A DNA stretch of 64,000 nucleotides from Alphaproteobacteria bacterium (lineage in GTDB: Bacteria > Pseudomonadota > Alphaproteobacteria > SP197), in contig OZ245842.1 in NCBI GenBank assembly GCA_965228895.1, positions 3,008,001 to 3,072,000 on the forward strand, read 5' to 3'. Every line of letters starts with the position of its first letter. The first letter of the stretch is position 1. This document shows, piece by piece, positions 46,729 to 57,220 of the stretch. Under the pieces are notes generated by a model that was not told the DNA's origin, ran no database searches, and saw nothing but the letters and a program-made list of their open reading frames with translations. Both the position numbers and the translations under genes were made by a program.

Positions 46729-47766
46729 ATGCCCCGACGAACGATCGTTCTTTTACTGAGATGGTTGCCCGCCGTGTTGGCGACGGGCTGGCTGGCCAGC
46801 TTTATCTGGGACACCGACAGCGGCGGCGCGGTCGAGACCATACCAATCGACCAAGGCGTGGTGCGTGTCTTCGTGACCGGGCCGCGTGGTGACGTTACGG
46901 GCACCGGTCTGGTGGTCGACGGCAACGGCCACGTCGCGACGAACTTCCACGTCATCCAATCGCATCTGGAGAACGGCTGGCCGCTGGGCGTCGGTGAACC
47001 CGGCCGCGGCAGCGACGAGCGGTTGGCCGCGACCGTTGTCGCCGCTTATCAGGGCGAGGACCTCGCCATTCTGCATGTCGAGAATCTCGACACTCTACCT
47101 GTCACTTTTGCCGCACCAACCGATGATGCCTTGGGTAAGGGCGCGGATGTCTTTGCGATTGGCTATCCAGGCGCGGCCGACCGGTTGGGTCCCGCCGATG
47201 ACGCCAGTCTGGCGCCGGGCATTGTCAGCCGCATCTTTGCCGGCCCGTGGTCCGACGGCGGTCCGATGATCGGTATCATCCAGCACACCGCGCCGACCAA
47301 CCCGGGCAACAGCGGCGGTCCGCTGGTTGATGCCTGTGGCCATGTCGTCGGCATCAACTCGCAGCGCGAAGTCAGAATGATTTTAGGTCCAGGCGGTGTA
47401 CCGCTGGTTACCGACCCAATCCAGGGTGTGTTCTACGCATCCGCAGCAGCAACGCTGGTCGAGAAGCTTCGCGATCTCGGCGTGAGCTATGTATCGGCGC
47501 CAGGCATGTGCGGCCCGGTCGGGTCGTCGACCACGCGGGAACCTGCGTTCGGATCGTGGATGGCGGTGTTGTTGATCGCGGCAGCGTCGGGCGCGGTTGC
47601 AATCATGAGACCGAAACCCGGCGTTCGCGTGATGGTCGATTGTGGCGCCTTTGTTGGCGACTGCGCCAAAGCCGTCGCCCGCACCGCCAAACACCTTAAC
47701 GCCGACGACCGCGGCCGCGATGTCGAGATCGTCATGATCCCCGACAGGCGCTCTCCTGACAGATGA
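46729..47766 (+). CDS. Trypsin-like (S1) serine protease with N- and C-terminal hydrophobic segments
   Basis: ATNFHV (His), DLAIL (Asp), NPGNSGGPL (Ser); AGGAGG RBS. Confidence 0.88.
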   Translation: MPRRTIVLLLRWLPAVLATGWLASFIWDTDSGGAVETIPIDQGVVRVFVTGPRGDVTGTGLVVDGNGHVATNFHVIQSHLENGWPLGVGEPGRGSDERLAATVVAAYQGEDLAILHVENLDTLPVTFAAPTDDALGKGADVFAIGYPGAADRLGPADDASLAPGIVSRIFAGPWSDGGPMIGIIQHTAPTNPGNSGGPLVDACGHVVGINSQREVRMILGPGGVPLVTDPIQGVFYASAAATLVEKLRDLGVSYVSAPGMCGPVGSSTTREPAFGSWMAVLLIAAASGAVAIMRPKPGVRVMVDCGAFVGDCAKAVARTAKHLNADDRGRDVEIVMIPDRRSPDR

Positions 47767-49778: not shown

Positions 49779-50774
49779 CTAGTCGCGGCAATCGAACGCG
49801 GCCCACAGGGGGTAGTGATCGGACAGCCGGTGCTGCACAACGGACTTCGAGAAACCTTTGTCCTGATAGAGAAACGGCACGAAGTCGACCATGCCGGCGC
49901 TGTCGAACGTCATGTTCAGACGCCGTTTCCTGCCCGACGTGAACCACGCGATCTGGTCATAGTACTTTTCGAGCTGGGCATCGTTGTCATCAGCAAAAAT
50001 CGAGCGCTTAACCTTGTGCAACGCATCGGGCACCTCAAGGCCCGTGCTGGTAAACGCCTTCCATAGCGGGTCGCCATGCCGGTCGATGTTGAAATCGCCG
50101 AGCGCAATGAAGTTCTGGCCATAGGCATTGGCTTGTTTGGCCCAGCGATCGAGCCATTCGGCGATTGCCTTGAGCTCGGGCACCCGCCCGGACGAAGACT
50201 TGCCGAAGTCGACATGAAGCGTCACCAGGGTGAACGTCTCCGAACCCGCCTGAAAACTCACCGCATAGGGCGTACGCGCGAACTGGCGCTGCAGGGCGTC
50301 AGAACCAACCGCGCCCAGTTCCTCTTCCGGCACCACGAGTTCACCGGCGAGACCCGATAGATTGGCCCGCGTCGTATCGAAGATGAAACCCATACGCTCG
50401 CTGTTACCGGCGTTGCCACGGGTGACGTCGGTCATCAAAAACCGCCACGACGGTCCCAGCGTCTTCATCATGGTGCGAAGCGCGCGCAGATCGCCTTTGA
50501 TCTCCTGGATCGCAATGACGTCGAAACGCGAGACGATCTCGGTGATCGCCCACAAACCGCGAAAATCCCGCTTGGGGCTGTCGCTGCCCGATGCCGTCCA
50601 TTTGCGGGTCAACGACGAGAACGCCTTGATGTTCCATGTCGCGATCAGAAGGTTACGGTCGGCCTGGCGCTTCGGCGGGACCGTTGCGTCCAGCTCGGCG
50701 CGCAGCGCCGTCATTTCGTCTTTCACCGCAGCCGGCGAAGCAGCGGCTTGCCATGATGGCAAGGGATCGGACAT
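49779..50774 (-). CDS. Endonuclease/exonuclease/phosphatase (EEP, DNase I-like) family protein
   Basis: ATWNI, DVIAIQEI, ARTPY, LGDFNI, YDQIAW, SDHYPLW. Confidence 0.9.
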   Translation of the reverse strand: MSDPLPSWQAAASPAAVKDEMTALRAELDATVPPKRQADRNLLIATWNIKAFSSLTRKWTASGSDSPKRDFRGLWAITEIVSRFDVIAIQEIKGDLRALRTMMKTLGPSWRFLMTDVTRGNAGNSERMGFIFDTTRANLSGLAGELVVPEEELGAVGSDALQRQFARTPYAVSFQAGSETFTLVTLHVDFGKSSSGRVPELKAIAEWLDRWAKQANAYGQNFIALGDFNIDRHGDPLWKAFTSTGLEVPDALHKVKRSIFADDNDAQLEKYYDQIAWFTSGRKRRLNMTFDSAGMVDFVPFLYQDKGFSKSVVQHRLSDHYPLWAAFDCRD

Positions 50775-50881: not shown

Positions 50882-51853
50882 TTAGAGGCTCTCGCCGCCG
50901 GCGGCCGGGATCTCCTCGGTGTCGCCATCACCTGTGGCCGCGGAGGCATCGGTGTCATCGGCGCCAAGGCCGTCGGCCTCGCTCGCACCACCGGCCGCTT
51001 GGCTGGGCAGCGGCACCGTCCACTCGCCGTCGACGACGCGGCCCATCTCGAGGATCAGATCGCGCGGCACATCGCCGATCAGGCTGTAGGAGCGTCCGGC
51101 GGTGCGCCAAAAGAGTGCGCTGACCAACCCCTCCTCCATCACCGTCAGGCTCGTCTCGCTGCTTTCCGCATCCGGACTATAGAAGAGTTCGACCCGCCGG
51201 CCGGCTTCGGACTCGTAGACCAGCTGCATCGCGCTCTCGTCGCTTTCCGAGAGCAGCCGGGCGCCAACGAGATTGAAGCCGAACACGCTGAAGTCCGGCG
51301 CGCCGTGCCCAGGCGCCGCTGGTTCGGCCGTACCGTCTTCCAGCACGGTTGTTGTCGCATCCGCAGCCGAACCGTCGTCGGAAACCTGTTGTACCGTGGC
51401 AGCGTCATCACCCTGCCCCGTCGAGAACAGGGCGAAGAGATCCTGATCGGCTGGACCGCCGATCACCGCGCGCAAGCCAACGGCGATCGCGCCCAACATC
51501 ACGACGGCAAAAACGGCGGCAGCGGCAAGCTGCAGGGGCAGCCGCAGCCAGTCGGCGCGATAACCCTGCCGGATCTCGTTGCCCTGGCTGGCCCGTTCGA
51601 TCGCCAAGCCCAGCTCGACATGCTGGGGCGGCAACGGCGCCTCCAGCCGCTTGTCGAACAGGCGATGCAGGTCCTGGCGGATCAGCCGCCCGCTGCGCAC
51701 ATAGGCCGCAGCCTCCGCATCCGCCAGCAGATAGCGTTCGACCGCCTCGCGTTCGGTGTCGTCCAGTTCGCCATCCAGATAGGCATCAAGCACGCCGTCG
51801 CCCCACGGCACCTGTTTGCCGCCCTGGTTCGCGTCCCTGTCGCTTGTGTCCAT
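50882..51853 (-). CDS. Transmembrane anti-sigma factor
   Basis: LDAYLDGELD..ER.AVE.YL N-terminus, one TM, APDFS.FGF.LVGARLL, QLVYE, YSLIGD; directly after the ECF sigma gene. Confidence 0.85.
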   Translation of the reverse strand: MDTSDRDANQGGKQVPWGDGVLDAYLDGELDDTEREAVERYLLADAEAAAYVRSGRLIRQDLHRLFDKRLEAPLPPQHVELGLAIERASQGNEIRQGYRADWLRLPLQLAAAAVFAVVMLGAIAVGLRAVIGGPADQDLFALFSTGQGDDAATVQQVSDDGSAADATTTVLEDGTAEPAAPGHGAPDFSVFGFNLVGARLLSESDESAMQLVYESEAGRRVELFYSPDAESSETSLTVMEEGLVSALFWRTAGRSYSLIGDVPRDLILEMGRVVDGEWTVPLPSQAAGGASEADGLGADDTDASAATGDGDTEEIPAAGGESL

Positions 51854-51854
51854 A

Positions 51855-52412
51855 TCAGTTGATCTCCGCCAGCTTCGGCCGTTCAGCCTTGTCCATGCCG
51901 TTCATCAGTGCGCGGCGTGCCCGCGACAGCCGCGACATCACCGTACCGATCGGGATATCCAGGATGTCAGCAGTCTGCCGGTAACTGAACCCTTCCAGAC
52001 ATACGAGTAGAATCACGGCTCTTTGTTCCATGGGCAGCCGCGATATGGCCAAAAAAAGTTCGTTGAGCTGCACCGCGTGTTCCTGGTTGGCGGCGACCGG
52101 CAGTTCCATGGTCAGGTCTTCCATGGCGATGTGGTCGCCGTCACGGCCGTAGCGCAGTTGCGACACCCTGACATTGTGCAGGATGGTGAAGAGATAGCCG
52201 CGCATGTTGCGAATCTTGCGGCCATCGCGCATCGCGGCCAGCCCACGCTGCAAGGTTTCCTGCACCAGATCATCGGCATCGGCGCTGTTGCCGACCAGCG
52301 ATAGCGCGTAACGGCGAAGCCCTGCGATGCTGCTGCGTAGTTCGTCGGACAAGGATTGCAAGAAGCTGCCCCCGTTCCCCAGCGTTGGCGAACGGGTAGC
52401 TTGGTCTGGCAT
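51855..52412 (-). CDS. ECF RNA polymerase sigma factor
   Basis: LRRYALSL...ADDLVQETL, YLFTILHN (region 2); LP.EQRAVILLV.LEGFSY...IPIGTVMSRLSRAR (region 4). Start uncertain. Confidence 0.92.
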   Translation of the reverse strand: MPDQATRSPTLGNGGSFLQSLSDELRSSIAGLRRYALSLVGNSADADDLVQETLQRGLAAMRDGRKIRNMRGYLFTILHNVRVSQLRYGRDGDHIAMEDLTMELPVAANQEHAVQLNELFLAISRLPMEQRAVILLVCLEGFSYRQTADILDIPIGTVMSRLSRARRALMNGMDKAERPKLAEIN

Positions 52413-52472
52413 TGGGTAGAGAATGTGGCAAGGCGTGCCGAGGTCGCACTTTTTTTGCCGCGGCACGATGAC

Positions 52473-52494
52473 GCAACACCATCGACTCTATTCC
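52473..52494 (-). promoter_or_regulatory. Putative ECF promoter facing the sigma gene
   Basis: Minus strand GGAATAGA-GTCGATGGTG-TTGC(GTCA), i.e. GGAAT-N16-CGTC. Confidence 0.55.
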
Positions 52495-52655
52495 CGAAAA
52501 ATAAAGTTCGCGGCGCGCGTGCCTCTCGACAAGACATCGCATCGTTTTTCGATGCTGCGTCAACGTCAACCGATCCGCGGCTGAGCGCATCGCCGGCTGC
52601 CTTTTGCTCGGCTGGTTGATGGAGGTGGCTGCAGAACTTCTTTTCGCGCGGTTCA

Positions 52656-52677
52656 GGAATAGACGGCGAAGACTTGC
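52656..52677 (+). promoter_or_regulatory. Putative ECF promoter facing the repeat-protein operon
   Basis: GGAATAGA-CGGCGAAGAC-TTGC, same motif and spacing as 52473-52494. Confidence 0.5.
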
Positions 52678-52811
52678 ACTCCATGGGGTGACAGGTCGCA
52701 TCAACGCGATCGGCCACGTCGCCCAGCGAGCCAACCCATCGCCAGGTGAACGAATCGAAAGGATGCGGCCTGTCGTCTTTCATAGCGAACCGCAGCGAAG
52801 GAATGGATTTC

Positions 52812-54671
52812 ATGCGCCTCAAAGACCTACTTCTGACGGCCAGTGTCAGCGCCGCCGCACTCGGACTGGGAACCGCCCATGCTGGTCAGCTTCTGATCGG
52901 CGGCATGGACGCGATCGACGTCCCCCAACAAAACGCCCTTTTCCTCGCCCAAGCGGATGCCGACGGCGGCGACGCTGGCGGTGATGGCGGCGGCGACGGT
53001 GGCGACGCCGGGGGCGGCGATGCCGGAGGCGACTCTGGCGGCAGCGATGGCGGCGGCGACGCTGACGGCGGTGGCGATAGCGGTGGTGGTGACGCCGATG
53101 GTGGCGGCGATGCAGACGGCGGCGCCGGCGACTCAGGCGGTGAGAGCGGCGGCGACGCCGGTGCCAGTACCGGCGGCAATGCTTCGGCCAGCGGCAACAG
53201 CTCAGCGAGCGGCGGCAATGCCTCCGCGTCGGCCAGCGCATCCGCCAGTGCCGGCGGCGGTTCGGCCGGCGCCGAAGCCGAGGGCTCGGCATCCGGCGAC
53301 AACGCGTCAGCCGGCGCCAATGCCAGCGCGGGCGTATCCGGCGATGGCGATGGTGCCTCCGCGGACGCCGGTGCTTCGGCCTCGGCCGATGGCGACGGGG
53401 CATCGGCCGGCACATCGGCCAGTGCGGATGCCGGAACCGACGGTGACGGTGCGTCGGCCAGCGCCGATACCGGTGCATCCGCATCGGTCGACGGTGCCGG
53501 CACGGCCAGCGCATCGAGTGATGCCAGCGCCAGCGCGTCTGTCGGGGATAGCGGCGGCAGTGCCGAGGCCTCGGGCGATGCCACCGGCGACGTTGCCGGC
53601 AACGGCTCGACCGAAACCGGCACCGAGCTCAGCGCGTCGACCGGCGGCAGTTCGGCAAGCGTCGACACAACATCGAGCGCCAGCGGCGGCACATCAGCCA
53701 ATGCCTCGAGCAGCGGTGATGCGTTCTCATCGTCCAATGGCGATGTCGCGATTAGCGGCGCATTGGGTAGCGCGGATGCGGATGCCGAAGGCGATGGCGC
53801 AACCGCTTCGGTCGGCGTCGATACGTCCGCTGGTGCCAGTGCAAGCGACACGTCGATCGACACCGGAAGCTGGAGCGGCGCCGATGCTTCAGCTGACGGC
53901 GACGGAGTAGCATCCGCTTCGGCGTCAGGCGCATCGGTCGCCGCAGCCATCGACGGCGAAGCTGTTGGCGGTTCGATCGGCACAGCGACCAGCAGCGCGG
54001 AAGGGGAAGATCCGTCAGCGTCGTCGGACGTCAAGACGGGTGTCGAGATCTCCGTCGATGACAGCACGGTGGCCGAGGCCAATGCCATGGCCGCCGCGAG
54101 TGCCGCGGTCGAAGGCGAAGGTGCGGTCGAAACGTCGGCAGCCGGCAGCAGCGAGGCGTCCTATCAGGACGGTGAGGCCAGTGCCGATGCTGAGGCCGAA
54201 GCCGAGGCGAGCGCCCAGGCGCAAGCCGACGACGCCGATGACGGCGTGCCGACGGCATCAGCCCAGGCGACCGCAACCGCAGTCGCCTCCGTCACCAACG
54301 ATGACGGGACGACCGTGACCGCGACAGCCATGGCGACCGCCATGGCCGAAGCAGTCGGCAATGCCAGTGCGGCAGCCCAAGCAGCGGCCAGTGCAGCGGC
54401 CCATGCCGAGGGGGCCTCGTCTGCCACGGCGGCAGCGGAGGCCGCGGCCCAGGCCGGCGCCGCAGCCAGTGCGGCCGCCCAAGCGGCAGCACAAGCCCGG
54501 TCGCTCGCCGACACGATGGGCACGGCCGAAGCCCACGCCCAGGCACAGGCGGCAGCCAAGGCGGCGCTGAGCGCCGAGGCCAATGCCGAAGCGGCGGCGG
54601 ACGCAGCAACCGTCGTTGTCGGCAGCCTCGCCGGCGCATCCGCAAGCGTCGATGGGGTGGCTGCTCCGTGA
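52812..54671 (+). CDS. Secreted low-complexity Ala/Ser/Gly/Asp-rich repeat protein (619 aa)
   Basis: Sec signal MRLKDLLLTASVSAAALGLGTAHA, (GGD)n block, ASASA..DGDG repeats, Ala-rich tail; AAGGA RBS; codons vary while the amino-acid pattern holds. Confidence 0.85.
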   Translation: MRLKDLLLTASVSAAALGLGTAHAGQLLIGGMDAIDVPQQNALFLAQADADGGDAGGDGGGDGGDAGGGDAGGDSGGSDGGGDADGGGDSGGGDADGGGDADGGAGDSGGESGGDAGASTGGNASASGNSSASGGNASASASASASAGGGSAGAEAEGSASGDNASAGANASAGVSGDGDGASADAGASASADGDGASAGTSASADAGTDGDGASASADTGASASVDGAGTASASSDASASASVGDSGGSAEASGDATGDVAGNGSTETGTELSASTGGSSASVDTTSSASGGTSANASSSGDAFSSSNGDVAISGALGSADADAEGDGATASVGVDTSAGASASDTSIDTGSWSGADASADGDGVASASASGASVAAAIDGEAVGGSIGTATSSAEGEDPSASSDVKTGVEISVDDSTVAEANAMAAASAAVEGEGAVETSAAGSSEASYQDGEASADAEAEAEASAQAQADDADDGVPTASAQATATAVASVTNDDGTTVTATAMATAMAEAVGNASAAAQAAASAAAHAEGASSATAAAEAAAQAGAAASAAAQAAAQARSLADTMGTAEAHAQAQAAAKAALSAEANAEAAADAATVVVGSLAGASASVDGVAAP

Positions 54672-54737
54672 CGGCCCGCGTGGCCGTGAGCCCGGACGAT
54701 GGTGAACCCTGAGTCGCCTTGTCCGGCTCCCCGTAGA

Positions 54738-54768
54738 GGTGGCCGGCGGGTTCGCCCCGCCGGCCACC
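54738..54768 (+). terminator. Strong intercistronic stem-loop
   Basis: GGTGGCCGGCGGG-TTCGC-CCCGCCGGCCACC, perfect 13 bp stem, no U tract. Confidence 0.65.
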
Positions 54769-54809
54769 GATGCGGCACCACCCGACAACCAAAAAGCCGG
54801 AGAGAACCC

Positions 54810-55196
54810 ATGAAGACCCATCACACCACCCGCCTGGTCGCCACGACCCGTGGTCTGACGATTGCCGCGATGCTGCTGATCGGCAGCGCGGCCGCCCTGT
54901 TCGCCGCGTCGAGCTGGGCCGACGACGCAATCACGGTCGATAGCCTGGAGGACGTCACCACCATGACCGCAGACGAAACGGACACATCGACCAGCGCCTC
55001 GGCTTCCGCCAGCGCCGGCACCACCATCACGTCGGATAAAAAGGCGGATTGCGCCGCCCATGCGACCGCCACTGCGAGCGCCACGGCAGACGGCGAAACC
55101 AGTTATCAGCACGACGAGGATCATGCCGCCAGCCAAGACGGCGGCTGTAACGCCGAGGCCAACGCGTCGGCGACGGCAACCAGCCAATCCGACTGA
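54810..55196 (+). CDS. Small secreted Ala/Thr/Ser-rich protein with two Cys (128 aa)
   Basis: GGAG RBS, signal ending SWA-DD, TSASASASAG / CAAHATATASATADG / CNAEANASATAT strands. Confidence 0.8.
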   Translation: MKTHHTTRLVATTRGLTIAAMLLIGSAAALFAASSWADDAITVDSLEDVTTMTADETDTSTSASASASAGTTITSDKKADCAAHATATASATADGETSYQHDEDHAASQDGGCNAEANASATATSQSD

Positions 55197-55314
55197 CGCG
55201 GATGACGCCCGCGGCGCGGTGATCGTCGCGTGATCCCCTGGTCATGCCACCGCGCACTGGGCGTCTCCGCTAACGGGGAGCCGGATCGGCTAAACATGCT
55301 CAGGAGCACGAACC

Positions 55315-56250
55315 ATGTTTCATCACGCTGTTGGAACACGCGGTCTTATCGCCGTGTGCCTTATCACCCTTCTCCAGGCTTGCAGTTCGGCACCGCCGGA
55401 CGCGCACCTTGTCCCTGACAATCCCGGCCTTTACGCCATCCGCGCCGATGAGTCCGTCCGCCTTGACGGCGATGCGGCCTGGGAGAATCAGAGCTGGGGA
55501 TGGCGCTCGACCATGCCCGAACAAACACAATTCGTCGTCTACGCGCCCGGCGAGAACCTCGCCAGCCAGCCGTCTGAGAAGATCTTCTTGCGCAAGGTCG
55601 CGTGGGTGCGCAGTCAGGTTTCCGCCGGCGGCGACATCATGCCGACCACCGGCAGCCAGTGGGACGTGCCGATCAGCGACGACTATCTGGTGCCGGTCAC
55701 CTACAGCATCATCGCGGGCCGCGCCGACACCATTCGCGTCGCGCCGCAGCAGCCTCTCGCACCCGGTCTTTATGCGCTTCAACTACGCGGCGGTGAGGTG
55801 CGCAACGCGCGCCTCGGTGTCAACTGGCCGAACATCGATCAAGACACCTACGCGGCCGCCCACTGTGTCGATCACTATCAGGACGGCACCGGCACCTATC
55901 GTCTGGAACCGTGCAACGACCAGCAACCGCAGTTGGCGGCGGCGAACGACCTGGCCGGCAACGGATTGGAGATCCAACTGGCCAACCCGACGACCGAAGT
56001 GGTCGGCGGTGTGACGACGCTTGTCATCCAGGGTGTCGTCACCAGCAGCAGCGACCGCGTCCAGCCGATCCCACTGTTGAATGCCGAGTTGCTGGATGGC
56101 GCCGGGCAGATGCTGACCAAGTGGCGCATCGTGCCGCCGGCAATCGAGATCGCGCCGGGCCAGACCGTCGCCTTCGAAACCCGCGCGCCGAGCCTGCCCG
56201 AAGGCACCGAGACGGTGAATGTAACCTTTAACGGAGCCCCGGCGAGTTAG
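55315..56250 (+). CDS. Lipoprotein with C-terminal DUF3426/FxLYD-like Ig domain
   Basis: AGGAG RBS, lipobox LQAC, C-terminal LVIQGVVT...PIPLLNAELLDGAGQ...IAPGQTVAFET. Confidence 0.78.
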   Translation: MFHHAVGTRGLIAVCLITLLQACSSAPPDAHLVPDNPGLYAIRADESVRLDGDAAWENQSWGWRSTMPEQTQFVVYAPGENLASQPSEKIFLRKVAWVRSQVSAGGDIMPTTGSQWDVPISDDYLVPVTYSIIAGRADTIRVAPQQPLAPGLYALQLRGGEVRNARLGVNWPNIDQDTYAAAHCVDHYQDGTGTYRLEPCNDQQPQLAAANDLAGNGLEIQLANPTTEVVGGVTTLVIQGVVTSSSDRVQPIPLLNAELLDGAGQMLTKWRIVPPAIEIAPGQTVAFETRAPSLPEGTETVNVTFNGAPAS

Positions 56251-56383
56251 AGCAGATCCCAATTGATTGGATCGCTACGCGATGAAATCAACTTGGGTGA
56301 GTCTGCTCTACATCTGAATAGCGATCGGATTCACACGACTTGATTGAACAGCAATGCGGTTCAATCAAGTCGTGATCCGATCG
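56248..56383 (-). repeat. Double-hairpin interspersed repeat, copy 4 (diverged, inverted)
   Basis: TAGAGCAGAT...GTCTGCTCTA hairpin B, then CGATCGGAT..ACGACTTGATTGAAC-N9-GTTCAATCAAGTCGT..ATCCGATCG hairpin A. Confidence 0.75.
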
Positions 56384-56409
56384 GGCCGCGCCCACTGACT
56401 CGCTGATGC

Positions 56410-56443
56410 TGGCGGGCCGCGGACTAGGAACTGCGGCCCGCCA
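56410..56443 (+). terminator. Probable intrinsic terminator
   Basis: TGGCGGGCCGCGG-ACTAGGAA-CTGCGGCCCGCCA followed by a pyrimidine run. Confidence 0.6.
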
Positions 56444-56650
56444 CCTCTCTTTCCCAGCGTTACTTCTCGATGATGAAGGAGACGCCGAAGCAGCGTCGCT
56501 TGCCGTCGAGCTCGTCGATGAACTTGCAGGTGCATGGCTCTCCAGCGTTGCCGCCTGCCGTCACAAAGCCGTCACGACCACTTGCTCTCGCGACAAACCA
56601 GGCACGACAGACCCTTTACATCTGTATAAGGCTGGGCGATCATCTCATAT

Positions 56651-57220
56651 ATGAGAAATCCTCCCGGCCATGAGTCTCACCTCGACGACCGCATCGCCAA
56701 CCGGCTGAAGGCGCTGCGGGTCGAACGCGGCTGGTCGCTGGATGAGCTGGCGGCGCGCTGCGGCGTCAGCCGGGCGACCCTGTCACGCCTGGAAAACGGC
56801 GAGGTCAGCCCGACCGCCTCGGTGCTGGGCAAGCTGTGCGCCAGCTACGGGCTCGCCATGTCGCGGCTGATGGCCGAGGTCGAGACCGACTTCGCGCCAT
56901 TGGTACGCCACGACGACCAGACCGTCTGGCAGGATCCGGAAACCGGTTTCGTGCGGCGCTCCGTCTCGCCGCCGGCACAGACACTGGGCGCCGAGGTCCT
57001 GCATTGCCACCTGCCGGCCGGCACGCAGATCGCCTACCGCGATCCGCCCCGGCCCGGGCTGGAACATCATCTGGTCATGCTGACCGGGACGCTGACCCTG
57101 ACCGTCGGCGGCACCGCCTATGCGCTTACCAAAGGCGACTGCCTGCGCTACCAGCTTCACGGGCCCGGCATCTTCGAAACCGGCAAGAAACCAGCGACCT
57201 ACATACTGGTCGTGTTGTGA
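56651..57220 (+). CDS. XRE-family HTH regulator with cupin domain
   Basis: WSLDELAARCGVSRATLSRLENGEVSPT, WQDPETGF.RR.VSP, GDCLRY. Confidence 0.9.
   Translation: MRNPPGHESHLDDRIANRLKALRVERGWSLDELAARCGVSRATLSRLENGEVSPTASVLGKLCASYGLAMSRLMAEVETDFAPLVRHDDQTVWQDPETGFVRRSVSPPAQTLGAEVLHCHLPAGTQIAYRDPPRPGLEHHLVMLTGTLTLTVGGTAYALTKGDCLRYQLHGPGIFETGKKPATYILVVL

Follow-up and report, generated by a model that had tools for sequence, protein, structure and literature searches.

A conserved alphaproteobacterial gene module combining a low-complexity protein, a small two-cysteine protein and a tandem beta-sandwich lipoprotein next to an ECF26-like sigma factor

The stretch of DNA analysed here (64,000 nucleotides of an alphaproteobacterial genome, contig OZ245842.1; hereafter the window) carries a conserved module that consists of a low-complexity (LC) protein, a small protein with two conserved cysteines (2-Cys) and a lipoprotein with tandem beta-sandwich domains. 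The three genes are clustered in five genera belonging to four alphaproteobacterial families; the original prediction for this region had proposed examining synteny, and the outcome was positive. Judging from sequence comparisons, none of the three proteins belongs to a described family, in agreement with the earlier suggestion of an undescribed system, and a search of the main texts of papers found no description of this module. The likely output of the ECF26-type switch at this locus is three protein families that lack any description. ECF26 itself is a large and poorly understood group of sigma factors, whose members mostly control small accessory regulons. The module is compact, comprising a single switch with a defined promoter and five genes in all, which makes it directly testable. 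Below, G000 denotes the genome containing the window (5.53 Mb), and G002 a relative from the same genus. All five open reading frames of the original prediction are present where it had placed them.

The gene order of the module is rearranged between genera, and its distribution is very patchy. An LC-type open reading frame adjoins the lipoprotein gene in seven of the eight genomes examined, while in G490, the remaining one, the available sequence begins within the lipoprotein gene. Of the seven genomes that could be assessed for the small 2-Cys protein, six have it. The module is adjoined by an ECF sigma gene in three of the five genera, which lies divergently in G000 and G002, and downstream on the same strand in G337, G490 and G380. 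In G142 and G558 the surroundings of the module showed no sigma gene, so ECF control is not universal.

The LC gene (52812–54671, forward strand) encodes 619 residues. They comprise a signal-peptide-like N-terminus (...AHA/GQ; signal peptides were assessed by eye and from hydropathy), a Gly/Asp-rich region (45–120), an Ala/Ser/Gly-rich region in which Ala alternates with period 2 (121 to ~490), and an Ala-rich three-helix C-terminus (504–613). Several long open reading frames overlap this gene on both strands, its GC content by codon position (0.71/0.70/0.71) does not single out the frame, which makes the GC3 test uninformative, and no LC homologue was obtained by word-based, Atlas or PDB sequence searches. 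One might suppose from this that the 619-aa frame arose by chance in GC-rich repetitive DNA, the unit being a sigma/anti-sigma pair beside unrelated small genes. This idea is refuted by the codon-position pattern and dN/dS: over 606 codons aligned with G002, differences by codon position number 57/44/268 (268 of 369 in third positions), with 222 synonymous vs 93 non-synonymous codon changes and a dN/dS of 0.10. The GAAGGAA ribosome-binding site ahead of the ATG and the signal-peptide-like start are likewise conserved in G002, equivalent genes occupy the same place in other families, and the probability of a chance frame is negligible. The low-complexity open reading frame noticed earlier is thus a true gene.

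The LC protein is under position-specific purifying selection. At a dS of ~1.0, its Ala/Ser-rich part shows a dN/dS of 0.09, similar to its globular neighbours (dN/dS 0.06–0.20), and its 280 codons align with only 2 gap columns. The best conserved positions are Gly and Ala. In the LC proteins of G000, G002, G337 and G380, A-x-A is over-represented 2.2–2.9 times, A-A is depleted, and period 2 is strong. Longer periods occur as well: 13–19 in G000, 19 and 38 in G380 (z 13.4 and 10.2), and 16–19 and 33–37 in G337. There is no tandem array within 53222–54320 of the gene, so these periodicities do not stem from recent DNA slippage. LC proteins have 560–770 residues, about 70% of which are Ala, Ser or Gly; these four contain 0–4 aromatic residues each and no Cys, and have net charges from −85 to −18 (strongly acidic in three of the four, −18 in G337). 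In the G000 genome, LC is the sole open reading frame of such composition. Features other than composition and periodicity differ between genera: the C-terminal helical domain of the G000 protein is not recognisable in the other LC proteins, and a C-terminal 'TPHMSM' block is common to the G337 protein and a G558 protein (E=1e-5). No homology was found between that block and the G000 C-terminus.

Pfam and NCBIfam contain no family for LC, the PDB sequence search gave only matches to Ala/Gln-rich helices at E>=1.5, and the ESM Atlas gave no usable match. A word-based search with residues 360–619 scored 8000 candidates without any at E<=0.001, self included, and is uninformative because of low-complexity words. 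Monomer structure prediction, proposed earlier as a check, yielded two beta-sandwiches for the lipoprotein but no fold for LC residues 1–492 (AlphaFold2 pLDDT 30–40, from an alignment of 2 sequences).

These values below 50 are consistent with another reading, in which LC is a soluble disordered periplasmic protein serving under envelope stress as a shield, a water or ion buffer, or a 'hydrophilin' rather than as a polymer, with the lipoprotein and the small protein co-induced. Periplasmic disordered stress proteins are known, for example Asr of Escherichia coli. The scarcity of aromatic residues, the lack of Cys, the strong acidity of three of the four proteins and the control by an ECF sigma factor fit this reading, as does the absence of a secretion pore from the neighbourhood: no outer-membrane secretion gene is conserved beside the module, and the conserved neighbourhood holds no barrel-sized gene, so LC may stay in the periplasm. 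Disorder, however, usually tolerates indels and substitutions, unlike what the low dN/dS and the two gap columns of the Ala/Ser-rich part indicate. Moreover, the period-2 Ala and the ~17–19-residue repeat are kept in three genera, which compositional constraint alone does not explain, and the acidity is not conserved, as the G337 protein shows. We consider a purely disordered role less likely than not; if correct, LC would stand out among periplasmic proteins as one that is both disordered and tightly conserved.

The spacer between the LC gene and the small gene (54669–54790) is nearly invariant in three species, and it contains the strong intercistronic hairpin that the original prediction had pointed out, with a 13-bp GC stem (54738–54768, forward strand; z −5.7). 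Since it has no U tract, it is not a canonical terminator; it is likely a partial terminator or a 3′-end stabiliser. Of four genera, three have such a hairpin behind the LC gene, long GC hairpins being present also in G337 and G380; that of G558 is weak. This recurrence suggests that more LC is produced than of the proteins encoded downstream.

The small gene (54810–55196, forward strand) encodes a 128-aa, apparently secreted protein with an N-terminal hydrophobic segment, an ASASASA run, and then a loop of two conserved cysteines separated by 31 residues with an acidic centre. Invariant positions in six sequences from four genera are C81, C113 and A65-S66/S68. Its profile found 10 database proteins, and Pfam contains no family for it. 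The proposed sharing of alternating-Ala strands with LC comes down to a resemblance in composition alone (BLASTP E=10); a relation of major and minor subunits like that of CsgA and CsgB is not supported, no homology having been detected between the two proteins. A complex prediction for lipoprotein residues 24–311 with small-protein residues 38–128 returned a score of 0.02 (mark 0.32).

The lipoprotein (311 aa; 55315–56250, forward strand) has an invariant lipobox cysteine (Cys23), an N-terminal beta-sandwich (36–170), a conserved Cys184/Cys200 pair and a C-terminal DUF3426/FxLYD-like beta-sandwich (215–311). According to the structural model, it is composed of two non-enzymatic beta-sandwich domains; the Ig-like C-terminal domain reported earlier stands as a beta-sandwich (Z 9.2, rmsd 2.6, 89 residues aligned), but there are two such domains, not one. 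Profile matches stay under their cut-offs (PF11906, 16.7 vs 27.7 bits; NF038353, 19.2 vs 23), while 10 of 21 full-length homologues carry PF11906. The family profile matches thousands of proteins through positions 210–310 only, whereas at E<=1e-30 no more than some 76 database clusters have the extra N-terminal domain. A scan of genome contigs with the lipoprotein returned only the G001 contig.

At the 3′ end the terminator of the original prediction has a counterpart in a terminator-like hairpin with a T-rich tail (56410–56453, forward strand; hairpin 56410–56443), but the first element met is one copy of a dispersed double-hairpin palindromic repeat of ~135 nt (56246–56385, forward strand), which has 28 further BLAST matches in the genome. 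An Rfam search over 52300–56700 gave two sub-threshold matches to miRNA families, taken as chance.

The two regulatory genes lie on the reverse strand, as described earlier, the sigma factor being recognised by Pfam and the anti-sigma factor by weak matches. The ECF sigma gene (51855–52361) encodes Sigma70_r2 (40.4 bits) and Sigma70_r4_2 (58.9 bits) domains without region 3. Its product matches TIGR02937 sigma70-ECF (62.6 bits, cut-off 42.9), and its best NCBIfam match, PRK12511, is under its cut-off (131.9 vs 185). The start was set at a conserved TTG at 52361, because a frame-breaking 1-nt indel distinguishes G000 from G002 upstream. The sigma stop codon abuts the start of the anti-sigma gene (50882–51853), whose 323-aa product has an N-terminal anti-sigma-like region, a single hydrophobic transmembrane segment (residues 102–135 by hydropathy) and a C-terminal domain of ~190 residues, presumably periplasmic. 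Its dN/dS vs G002 is 0.14, and its profile matches are zf-HC2 (19.3 bits vs a cut-off of 22.2) and NF052375 (33.4 vs 100).

The sigma factor shares 96% identity with that of G002 and 46% and 45% with the module-linked sigmas of G337 and G380. Many unrelated plasmid-borne sigmas give 42–47%, so identity alone does not define the ECF26 group; the 45–46% among the three module-linked sigmas is no higher than vs plasmid sigmas, so only context and promoter speak for their orthology. Around one of these plasmid sigmas, from Azospirillum, the neighbouring genes are unrelated to the module. The sigma factor of the window appears ECF26-like by its sigma-2/sigma-4 domains, the promoter consensus and the adjacent anti-sigma gene, whose product has one transmembrane segment.

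The ECF26 consensus comprises a −35 GGAATA and a −10 GT (PMC6180224, section 7). A GGAATA-N16-GTC promoter of the sigma/anti-sigma operon is located at 52469–52494 (reverse strand) and kept in G002. This strict motif has 2 matches in the G000 genome vs 3.6 expected from base composition, and the genome-wide search with it identified no regulon outside the locus. It occurs exactly once in each of the loci L013, L019 and L021: 5′ of the sigma gene in G002, and ahead of LC in G337 and G380, at distances of 209 and 325 nt from the start codon, respectively. An ECF26-type motif precedes the sigma gene in G000 and, in two other genera, the LC operon, heading the LC-to-sigma operons of G337 and G380; the ECF link to the LC operon that was predicted recurs in three genera with a common promoter motif. 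In G000 and G002 the LC operon has its own candidate promoter (52656–52682, forward strand) with the same GGAATAGA −35 box and CTC at −10, where other promoters carry GTC. The pair that it forms with the promoter at 52494 (reverse strand) is the only one in the genome with two GGAATAGA boxes back to back within 400 bp. A putative long 5′ leader follows (52683–52811, forward strand), nearly invariant between G000 and G002 save a 10-nt indel and conserved beyond synonymous sites (dS 0.9).

The regulons of ECF26 sigmas are small and lie near the sigma genes themselves, and in one ECF26 operon the first gene encodes a secreted protein reported to account for 10% of all protein in the stationary phase (PMC6180224, section 7; PMC3511301). 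For secreted proteins encoded first in such operons a signalling role has been suggested. Genes co-transcribed with ECF sigmas often regulate them (PMC3511301). The lipoprotein, and perhaps the small protein, could be a sensor or co-regulator in sigma signalling, LC being the main or only output. In G337, G490 and G380, from two other genera, the gene immediately 5′ of sigma, in the same orientation, is that of the lipoprotein, and sigma has no anti-sigma gene next to it; among ECF26 operons, the placing of a lipoprotein gene ahead of sigma is widely conserved (PMC6180224, section 7), and SMc01418 homologues are recurrent in rpoE1-like operons (PMC3511301). Yet SMc01418 is described in these sources as a 'lipoprotein 15' repeat protein, of another family, the module lipoprotein stands beside LC-type genes also in G142 and G558, where no sigma was seen, and in G000 its gene is the last of the LC operon, apart from the sigma/anti-sigma operon. 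We regard a co-regulatory function as rather improbable.

The reading that we tentatively prefer, at somewhat less than an even chance, takes the unit as an accessory envelope module that an ECF26-type sigma/anti-sigma switch controls, with LC as a structural or matrix protein and two accessory factors. It builds on the genes, purifying selection, conserved clustering, promoter motif, hairpins and sequence periodicities observed directly. The membrane anti-sigma would hold the sigma factor until a periplasmic signal frees it; the freed sigma would act at GGAATA-N16-GTC to transcribe its own operon, and at the back-to-back promoter to transcribe the LC operon on the other side. The first LC-operon gene would yield a Sec-exported Ala/Ser/Gly-rich protein, and the hairpin behind it would end or stabilise most transcripts, so that LC would far outnumber the products of the two genes that follow. 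These two, the disulfide-loop protein and the lipoprotein anchored in the membrane, may be sub-stoichiometric helpers that would retain LC at the envelope, nucleate it or organise it there. As structural material, with short (Ala-x)n strands, Gly/Asp/Asn turns between them and ~17–19-residue repeats, LC would build up a layer, matrix or fibre rich in beta structure. A more specific proposal, which we consider unlikely, makes LC a new silk- or amyloid-like building block forming a beta-solenoid or a cross-beta fibre or sheet, nucleated or capped by the small protein, tethered by the tandem-Ig lipoprotein, switched by the ECF26-type sigma, and unrelated to curli, Fap, TasA and chaplins. Should LC polymerise, it would be a bacterial material of a new kind, extracellular or periplasmic, whose sequence grammar is simple and designable. 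The original interpretation is partly supported overall; its label 'stress-inducible' would follow from the regulator type alone.

Among known systems, the closest regulatory parallel is offered by ECF26 operons (SMc01418-rpoE1-ecfR1 of Sinorhizobium meliloti; RpoE4, RpoE6). They share with the module the promoter (−35 GGAATA, −10 GT(C)), a likely autoregulated sigma gene followed by an anti-sigma gene whose product has a putative N-terminal anti-sigma region, one transmembrane segment and a periplasmic domain, and a small local regulon with a gene for a secreted protein or lipoprotein beside sigma. The output differs, being sulfite oxidation genes and the 'lipoprotein 15' repeat protein in S. 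meliloti, and here LC, the 2-Cys protein and the tandem-sandwich lipoprotein; the three module genomes whose sigma lacks an adjacent anti-sigma gene also depart from this pattern.

The C-terminal beta-sandwich of the lipoprotein, ~95 residues, is of the same type as in ZitP/DUF3426/FxLYD proteins, and the G000 genome contains a ZitP-like paralogue. In place of the cytoplasmic zinc ribbon and transmembrane anchor of ZitP, the module lipoprotein has a lipoprotein signal; gene context and the extra N-terminal sandwich likewise set it apart.

Like the module, curli and Fap bring together in a single operon a lipoprotein, a repetitive major protein exported through Sec and a further, small secreted protein, and the LC repeat of ~17–19 residues with Gly/Asn/Asp turns is of a length likened to that of curli. 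In line with the original prediction, which had seen no curli or Fap repeat motifs and no secretion pore gene, curli or Fap homology is absent, and no pore gene was found in the neighbourhood, in contrast to the outer-membrane channels of both systems. Curlin repeats are absent (no Pfam-A match for LC or the small protein of G000, G337 and G380), curli subunits are homologous to each other, unlike LC and the small protein, and the curli channel CsgG has no match in the module lipoprotein, with its two beta-sandwiches and weak DUF3426/FxLYD matches. Fap has FapC-type repeats and the FapF barrel, for which Pfam presumably has models; the module has no Pfam family save the sub-threshold lipoprotein matches, and no barrel-sized gene. 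Arthropod silk-like beta-sheet proteins of the Ala-Ser/Ala-Gly type offer a further comparison. No homology is implied, and organism and export route differ; the likeness lies in Ala at every second position, alternating with small residues, and in Gly-rich turns.

The best-supported reading of the unit is an ECF26-type switch over a compact envelope module, comprising an abundant, Sec-exported low-complexity protein (LC) and two helper proteins. In this scheme, the Ala/Ser/Gly-rich LC would be the main product, exported in large amounts through Sec, and its helpers would be a small protein with a disulfide loop and a lipoprotein with two beta-sandwiches in tandem. All five open reading frames (ORFs) of the original prediction are present in the source genome (G000; 5.53 Mb, a single contig). 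The ECF sigma factor gene (51855-52361, minus strand), with Sigma70_r2 and r4_2 domains, is directly followed by the gene of a 323-aa anti-sigma candidate (50882-51853, minus strand), which has weak anti-sigma matches and a single hydrophobic segment (residues 102-135) with about 190 residues past it. Encoded on the plus strand are LC (619 aa, 52812-54671), the small protein (128 aa, 54810-55196), and the lipoprotein (311 aa, 55315-56250). No Pfam or NCBIfam family was matched by LC or the small protein, and the lipoprotein has only sub-threshold DUF3426/FxLYD matches, confined to its last ~80 residues. Past the anti-sigma gene, 107 nt downstream and in the same orientation, comes an endonuclease/exonuclease/phosphatase-family gene (49779-50774, minus strand), an arrangement shared with the same-genus genome G002; about 3 kb beyond it lies the gene of a trypsin-like peptidase (46729-47766, plus strand) that ends in a hydrophobic C-terminal tail. 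According to the available text of PMC6180224, some ECF26 sigmas are adjoined by serine protease genes.

Sequence composition cannot decide the coding status of LC, because long ORFs overlap it on both strands and GC content by codon position is flat across it. All five genes are syntenic in G002, in the same order. Over 606 aligned codons, the two LC genes differ at 57, 44, and 268 first, second, and third codon positions; 222 of the codon changes are synonymous and 93 non-synonymous, and dN/dS is 0.10 (Nei-Gojobori). The Ala/Ser-rich part (residues 121-400) gives 0.09 with only 2 gap columns; for comparison, the values are 0.06 for the lipoprotein, 0.14 for the small protein, 0.06 for sigma, 0.14 for anti-sigma, and 0.06-0.20 for flanking genes. 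The codon-position pattern and dN/dS therefore show that LC is a genuine protein and that its "low-complexity" part is under constraint at individual positions. Its best-conserved positions between the two genomes are Gly (94%) and Ala (88%), and its composition is unique among the ORFs of G000.

LC statistics were obtained for four proteins, from G000, G002, and two genomes of other genera (G337 and G380). Their length in this analysis is 562-737 aa. Ala makes up 27-32% of the residues, Ser 16-25%, and Gly 16-19%; Cys is absent, each protein has 0-4 aromatic residues, and net charge lies between -85 and -18. The pattern A-x-A is enriched 2.2-2.9-fold, and A-A is under-represented. Autocorrelation revealed a strong period of 2 in all four, together with longer periods of 13-19 in G000 and G002, 19 and 38 in G380 (z 13.4 and 10.2), and 16-19 plus 33-37 in G337. 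DNA tandem repeats in the LC gene occur only in the Gly/Asp-rich N-terminal stretch and at the 3' end; thus, the periodicity is kept at the protein level.

Because of the conserved period-2 alternation, the repeats of about 17-19 residues, and the strong positional constraint, an ordered, beta-rich LC assembly is favoured over a merely disordered chain. The same three features speak against LC being a disordered protectant, which is nonetheless a possible, if less probable, reading: AlphaFold2 yields no fold for residues 1-492 (pLDDT 30-40, from an alignment of two sequences only), and no conserved secretion pore was found near the module. These two results also bear on the proposed ECF-controlled extracellular fibre, sheath, or coat, which is partly supported, through the conserved module with its ECF26-type promoter motif; a fibre formed by LC is possible but rather unlikely. 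For residues 504-613, the same two-sequence alignment gave three predicted helices (pLDDT about 80-88), and this helical C-terminus was not recognised in LC of other genera. The G337 LC (locus L019, 8281-10599, minus strand) and a 269-aa protein of a further genus, G558 (L031, 10678-11487, minus strand), have a common C-terminal block, …S-I-x-T-P-H-M-S-M… (BLASTP E=1e-5). The G000 LC lacks this block, so the C-terminal module differs between lineages.

The sigma/LC spacer contains blocks conserved between G000 and G002. The motif GGAATA-N14-SS-GTC-W precedes the sigma start by 133 nt in G000, with a corresponding site in G002, and precedes the LC start by 209 nt in G337 and by 325 nt in G380. 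Exactly one copy occurs in each of the 15-17-kb loci of G002, G337, and G380, none in the locus of G142 (another genus), and a slightly looser version was not found in that of G558; the whole G000 genome holds 2 copies versus 3.6 expected from base composition. In the available text of PMC6180224, the consensus of group ECF26 across species is -35 GGAATA / -10 GT, and the regulons of the group are described as small and near the sigma gene. On the basis of this description and the motif, the sigma factor is read as ECF26-like. In G337 and G380, sigma is part of the LC operon, which would be autoregulated; in the G000 genus the sigma/anti-sigma pair would have been turned into a divergent unit with its own promoter copy. 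Upstream of LC, the same extended -35 box, GGAATAGA, is found at 52656 in G000, and also in G002, with CTC in place of GTC. Of the 85 GGAATAGA copies in the G000 genome, this box and that of the sigma promoter are the only two arranged back to back within 400 bp. We infer direct sigma control of the G000 LC operon, an assignment weakened by the off-consensus -10. The putative LC 5' leader (52683-52811) is almost invariant between G000 and G002 except for a 10-nt indel, at a dS of ~0.9 at synonymous sites. Long leaders occur in G337 (~185 nt) and G380 (~300 nt) as well, and another regulatory element may be located in this region.

The small proteins of four genera align, sharing a signal-peptide-like start, an ASASAS run, and two invariant Cys 31 residues apart with an acidic centre between them; no homology of the small protein to LC was found. 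The lipoprotein family is characterized by an invariant lipobox Cys, a W-V-R-S motif, and a Cys184/Cys200 pair. Its model (pLDDT 83.6) comprises two beta-sandwich domains without an enzymatic domain. Structural comparison relates the domain at residues 215-311 to generic Ig/FN3-like sandwich domains (best Z 9.2, rmsd 2.6, 89 residues aligned) and the one at residues 36-170 to CopC and L,D-transpeptidase Ig-like domains (Z 7.5-7.7), and Foldseek returned only two-domain Ig-like matches with low TM scores; such model-based scores point to a common fold rather than to a function. A 310-aa paralogue of the C-terminal domain is encoded elsewhere in G000 (about 4739838-4740770; L014 4838-5770, minus strand). 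It has a zinc-ribbon-like N-terminus (CxxC...CxxC), resembles ZitP-type DUF3426 proteins, with which the accessible part of the DUF3426 literature is concerned, and adjoins ORFs resembling, by eye, ftsE/ftsX.

The module is conserved yet rare. The full-length lipoprotein occurs in 3 of 41 relatives (all within the genus), 3 of 33 genomes of the order, and 4 of 401 genomes sampled across the class (E<=1e-20; G000, G142, G337, and G380); within the orders of G142, G337, and G380, it was found in 1/49, 2/50, and 2/40 genomes. Its total spread is five genera in four families. The 90%-identity protein clusters include 21 relatives, one named "FxLYD domain-containing protein", and 1.84 billion 50%-identity representatives include 76 at E<=1e-30, with weaker matches covering the C-terminal domain only.

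LC, the small protein, the lipoprotein, and sigma follow one another on one strand in G337 (LC of 772 aa, lipoprotein followed by ECF sigma) and G380 (LC of 562 aa). The contig of G490, from the genus of G337, begins inside the lipoprotein gene, followed by sigma, and that of G001, from the G000 genus, begins in the LC 3' end, followed by the small and lipoprotein genes. In G142, the contig begins in the 3' end of an LC-type ORF whose stop lies 34 nt before the lipoprotein gene, with no small gene and no sigma downstream of the lipoprotein gene. In G558, two genes converge on the lipoprotein gene, one encoding the LC-like 269-aa protein and the other a small 2-Cys protein; another LC-type gene (478 aa) is found alongside, and an ORF resembling a response regulator, judged by eye, adjoins the 14.5-kb locus, in which no sigma was seen. 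The proposed synteny check gave a positive result: an Ala/Ser-rich LC-type ORF adjoins the lipoprotein gene in 7 of 8 genomes (G490 could not be assessed), 6 of 7 have the small protein, and 5 of 8 have an adjacent sigma. A lipoprotein gene upstream of sigma is a widely conserved ECF26 arrangement in the available text of PMC6180224, and the same order in the G337/G490 genus and G380 would suit a lipoprotein acting in sigma signalling; given the sigma-less clusters of G142 and G558, such a role is improbable, and assistance to LC is the preferred reading. Three assemblies (G001, G142, and G490; starts of L015, L020, and L029) break in or right beside the LC gene, and LC genes and their contexts are probably under-reported by short-read metagenomes. 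Additionally, the G337 module is flanked by genes of a PRC-barrel protein and an IalB-family protein (Pfam; L019 11107-11646 and 5242-5877, plus strand), both of secreted/envelope types.

The LC/small-gene spacer (54669-54790) is near-invariant in three species despite diverged synonymous sites and contains a 13-bp GC stem (54738-54768, z -5.7) without a U tract. GC hairpins unrelated to this stem but equally long lie 3' of LC in G337 (12 bp, z -3.3) and G380 (at least 16 bp, z -4.3); the G558 spacer is not unusual (z -0.9). The recurring hairpin would act as a partial terminator or 3'-end stabiliser, with LC as the abundant product. The terminator predicted after the lipoprotein gene is matched by a terminator-like stem with a T-rich tail, while the other hairpins there belong to a copy (56246-56385) of a dispersed ~135-nt double-hairpin REP/MITE-like repeat. 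This repeat has 28 further BLAST matches in G000 (68-89% identity), at 4900801-4901275 and about 25 other places, three tandem copies being among the matches. Where G000 has the repeat, between the lipoprotein gene and an HTH-cupin gene, G002 carries an additional ORF (355 aa; L013 5038-6105, minus strand) whose product starts with a membrane segment at the N-terminal side.

Full-text searches found no description of the module in the literature. The module is neither a curli nor a Fap system: as the original prediction had noted, there are no matching repeats and no pore gene equivalent to CsgG or FapF. It also lacks a homologous major/minor pair. In the ECF26 system of Sinorhizobium meliloti, as far as the available text describes it, SMc01418 carries "lipoprotein 15" repeats and belongs to a family different from the module lipoprotein. 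The regulator is probably a new addition to an established group, and its three likely output families, LC, the small protein, and the lipoprotein, are undescribed.
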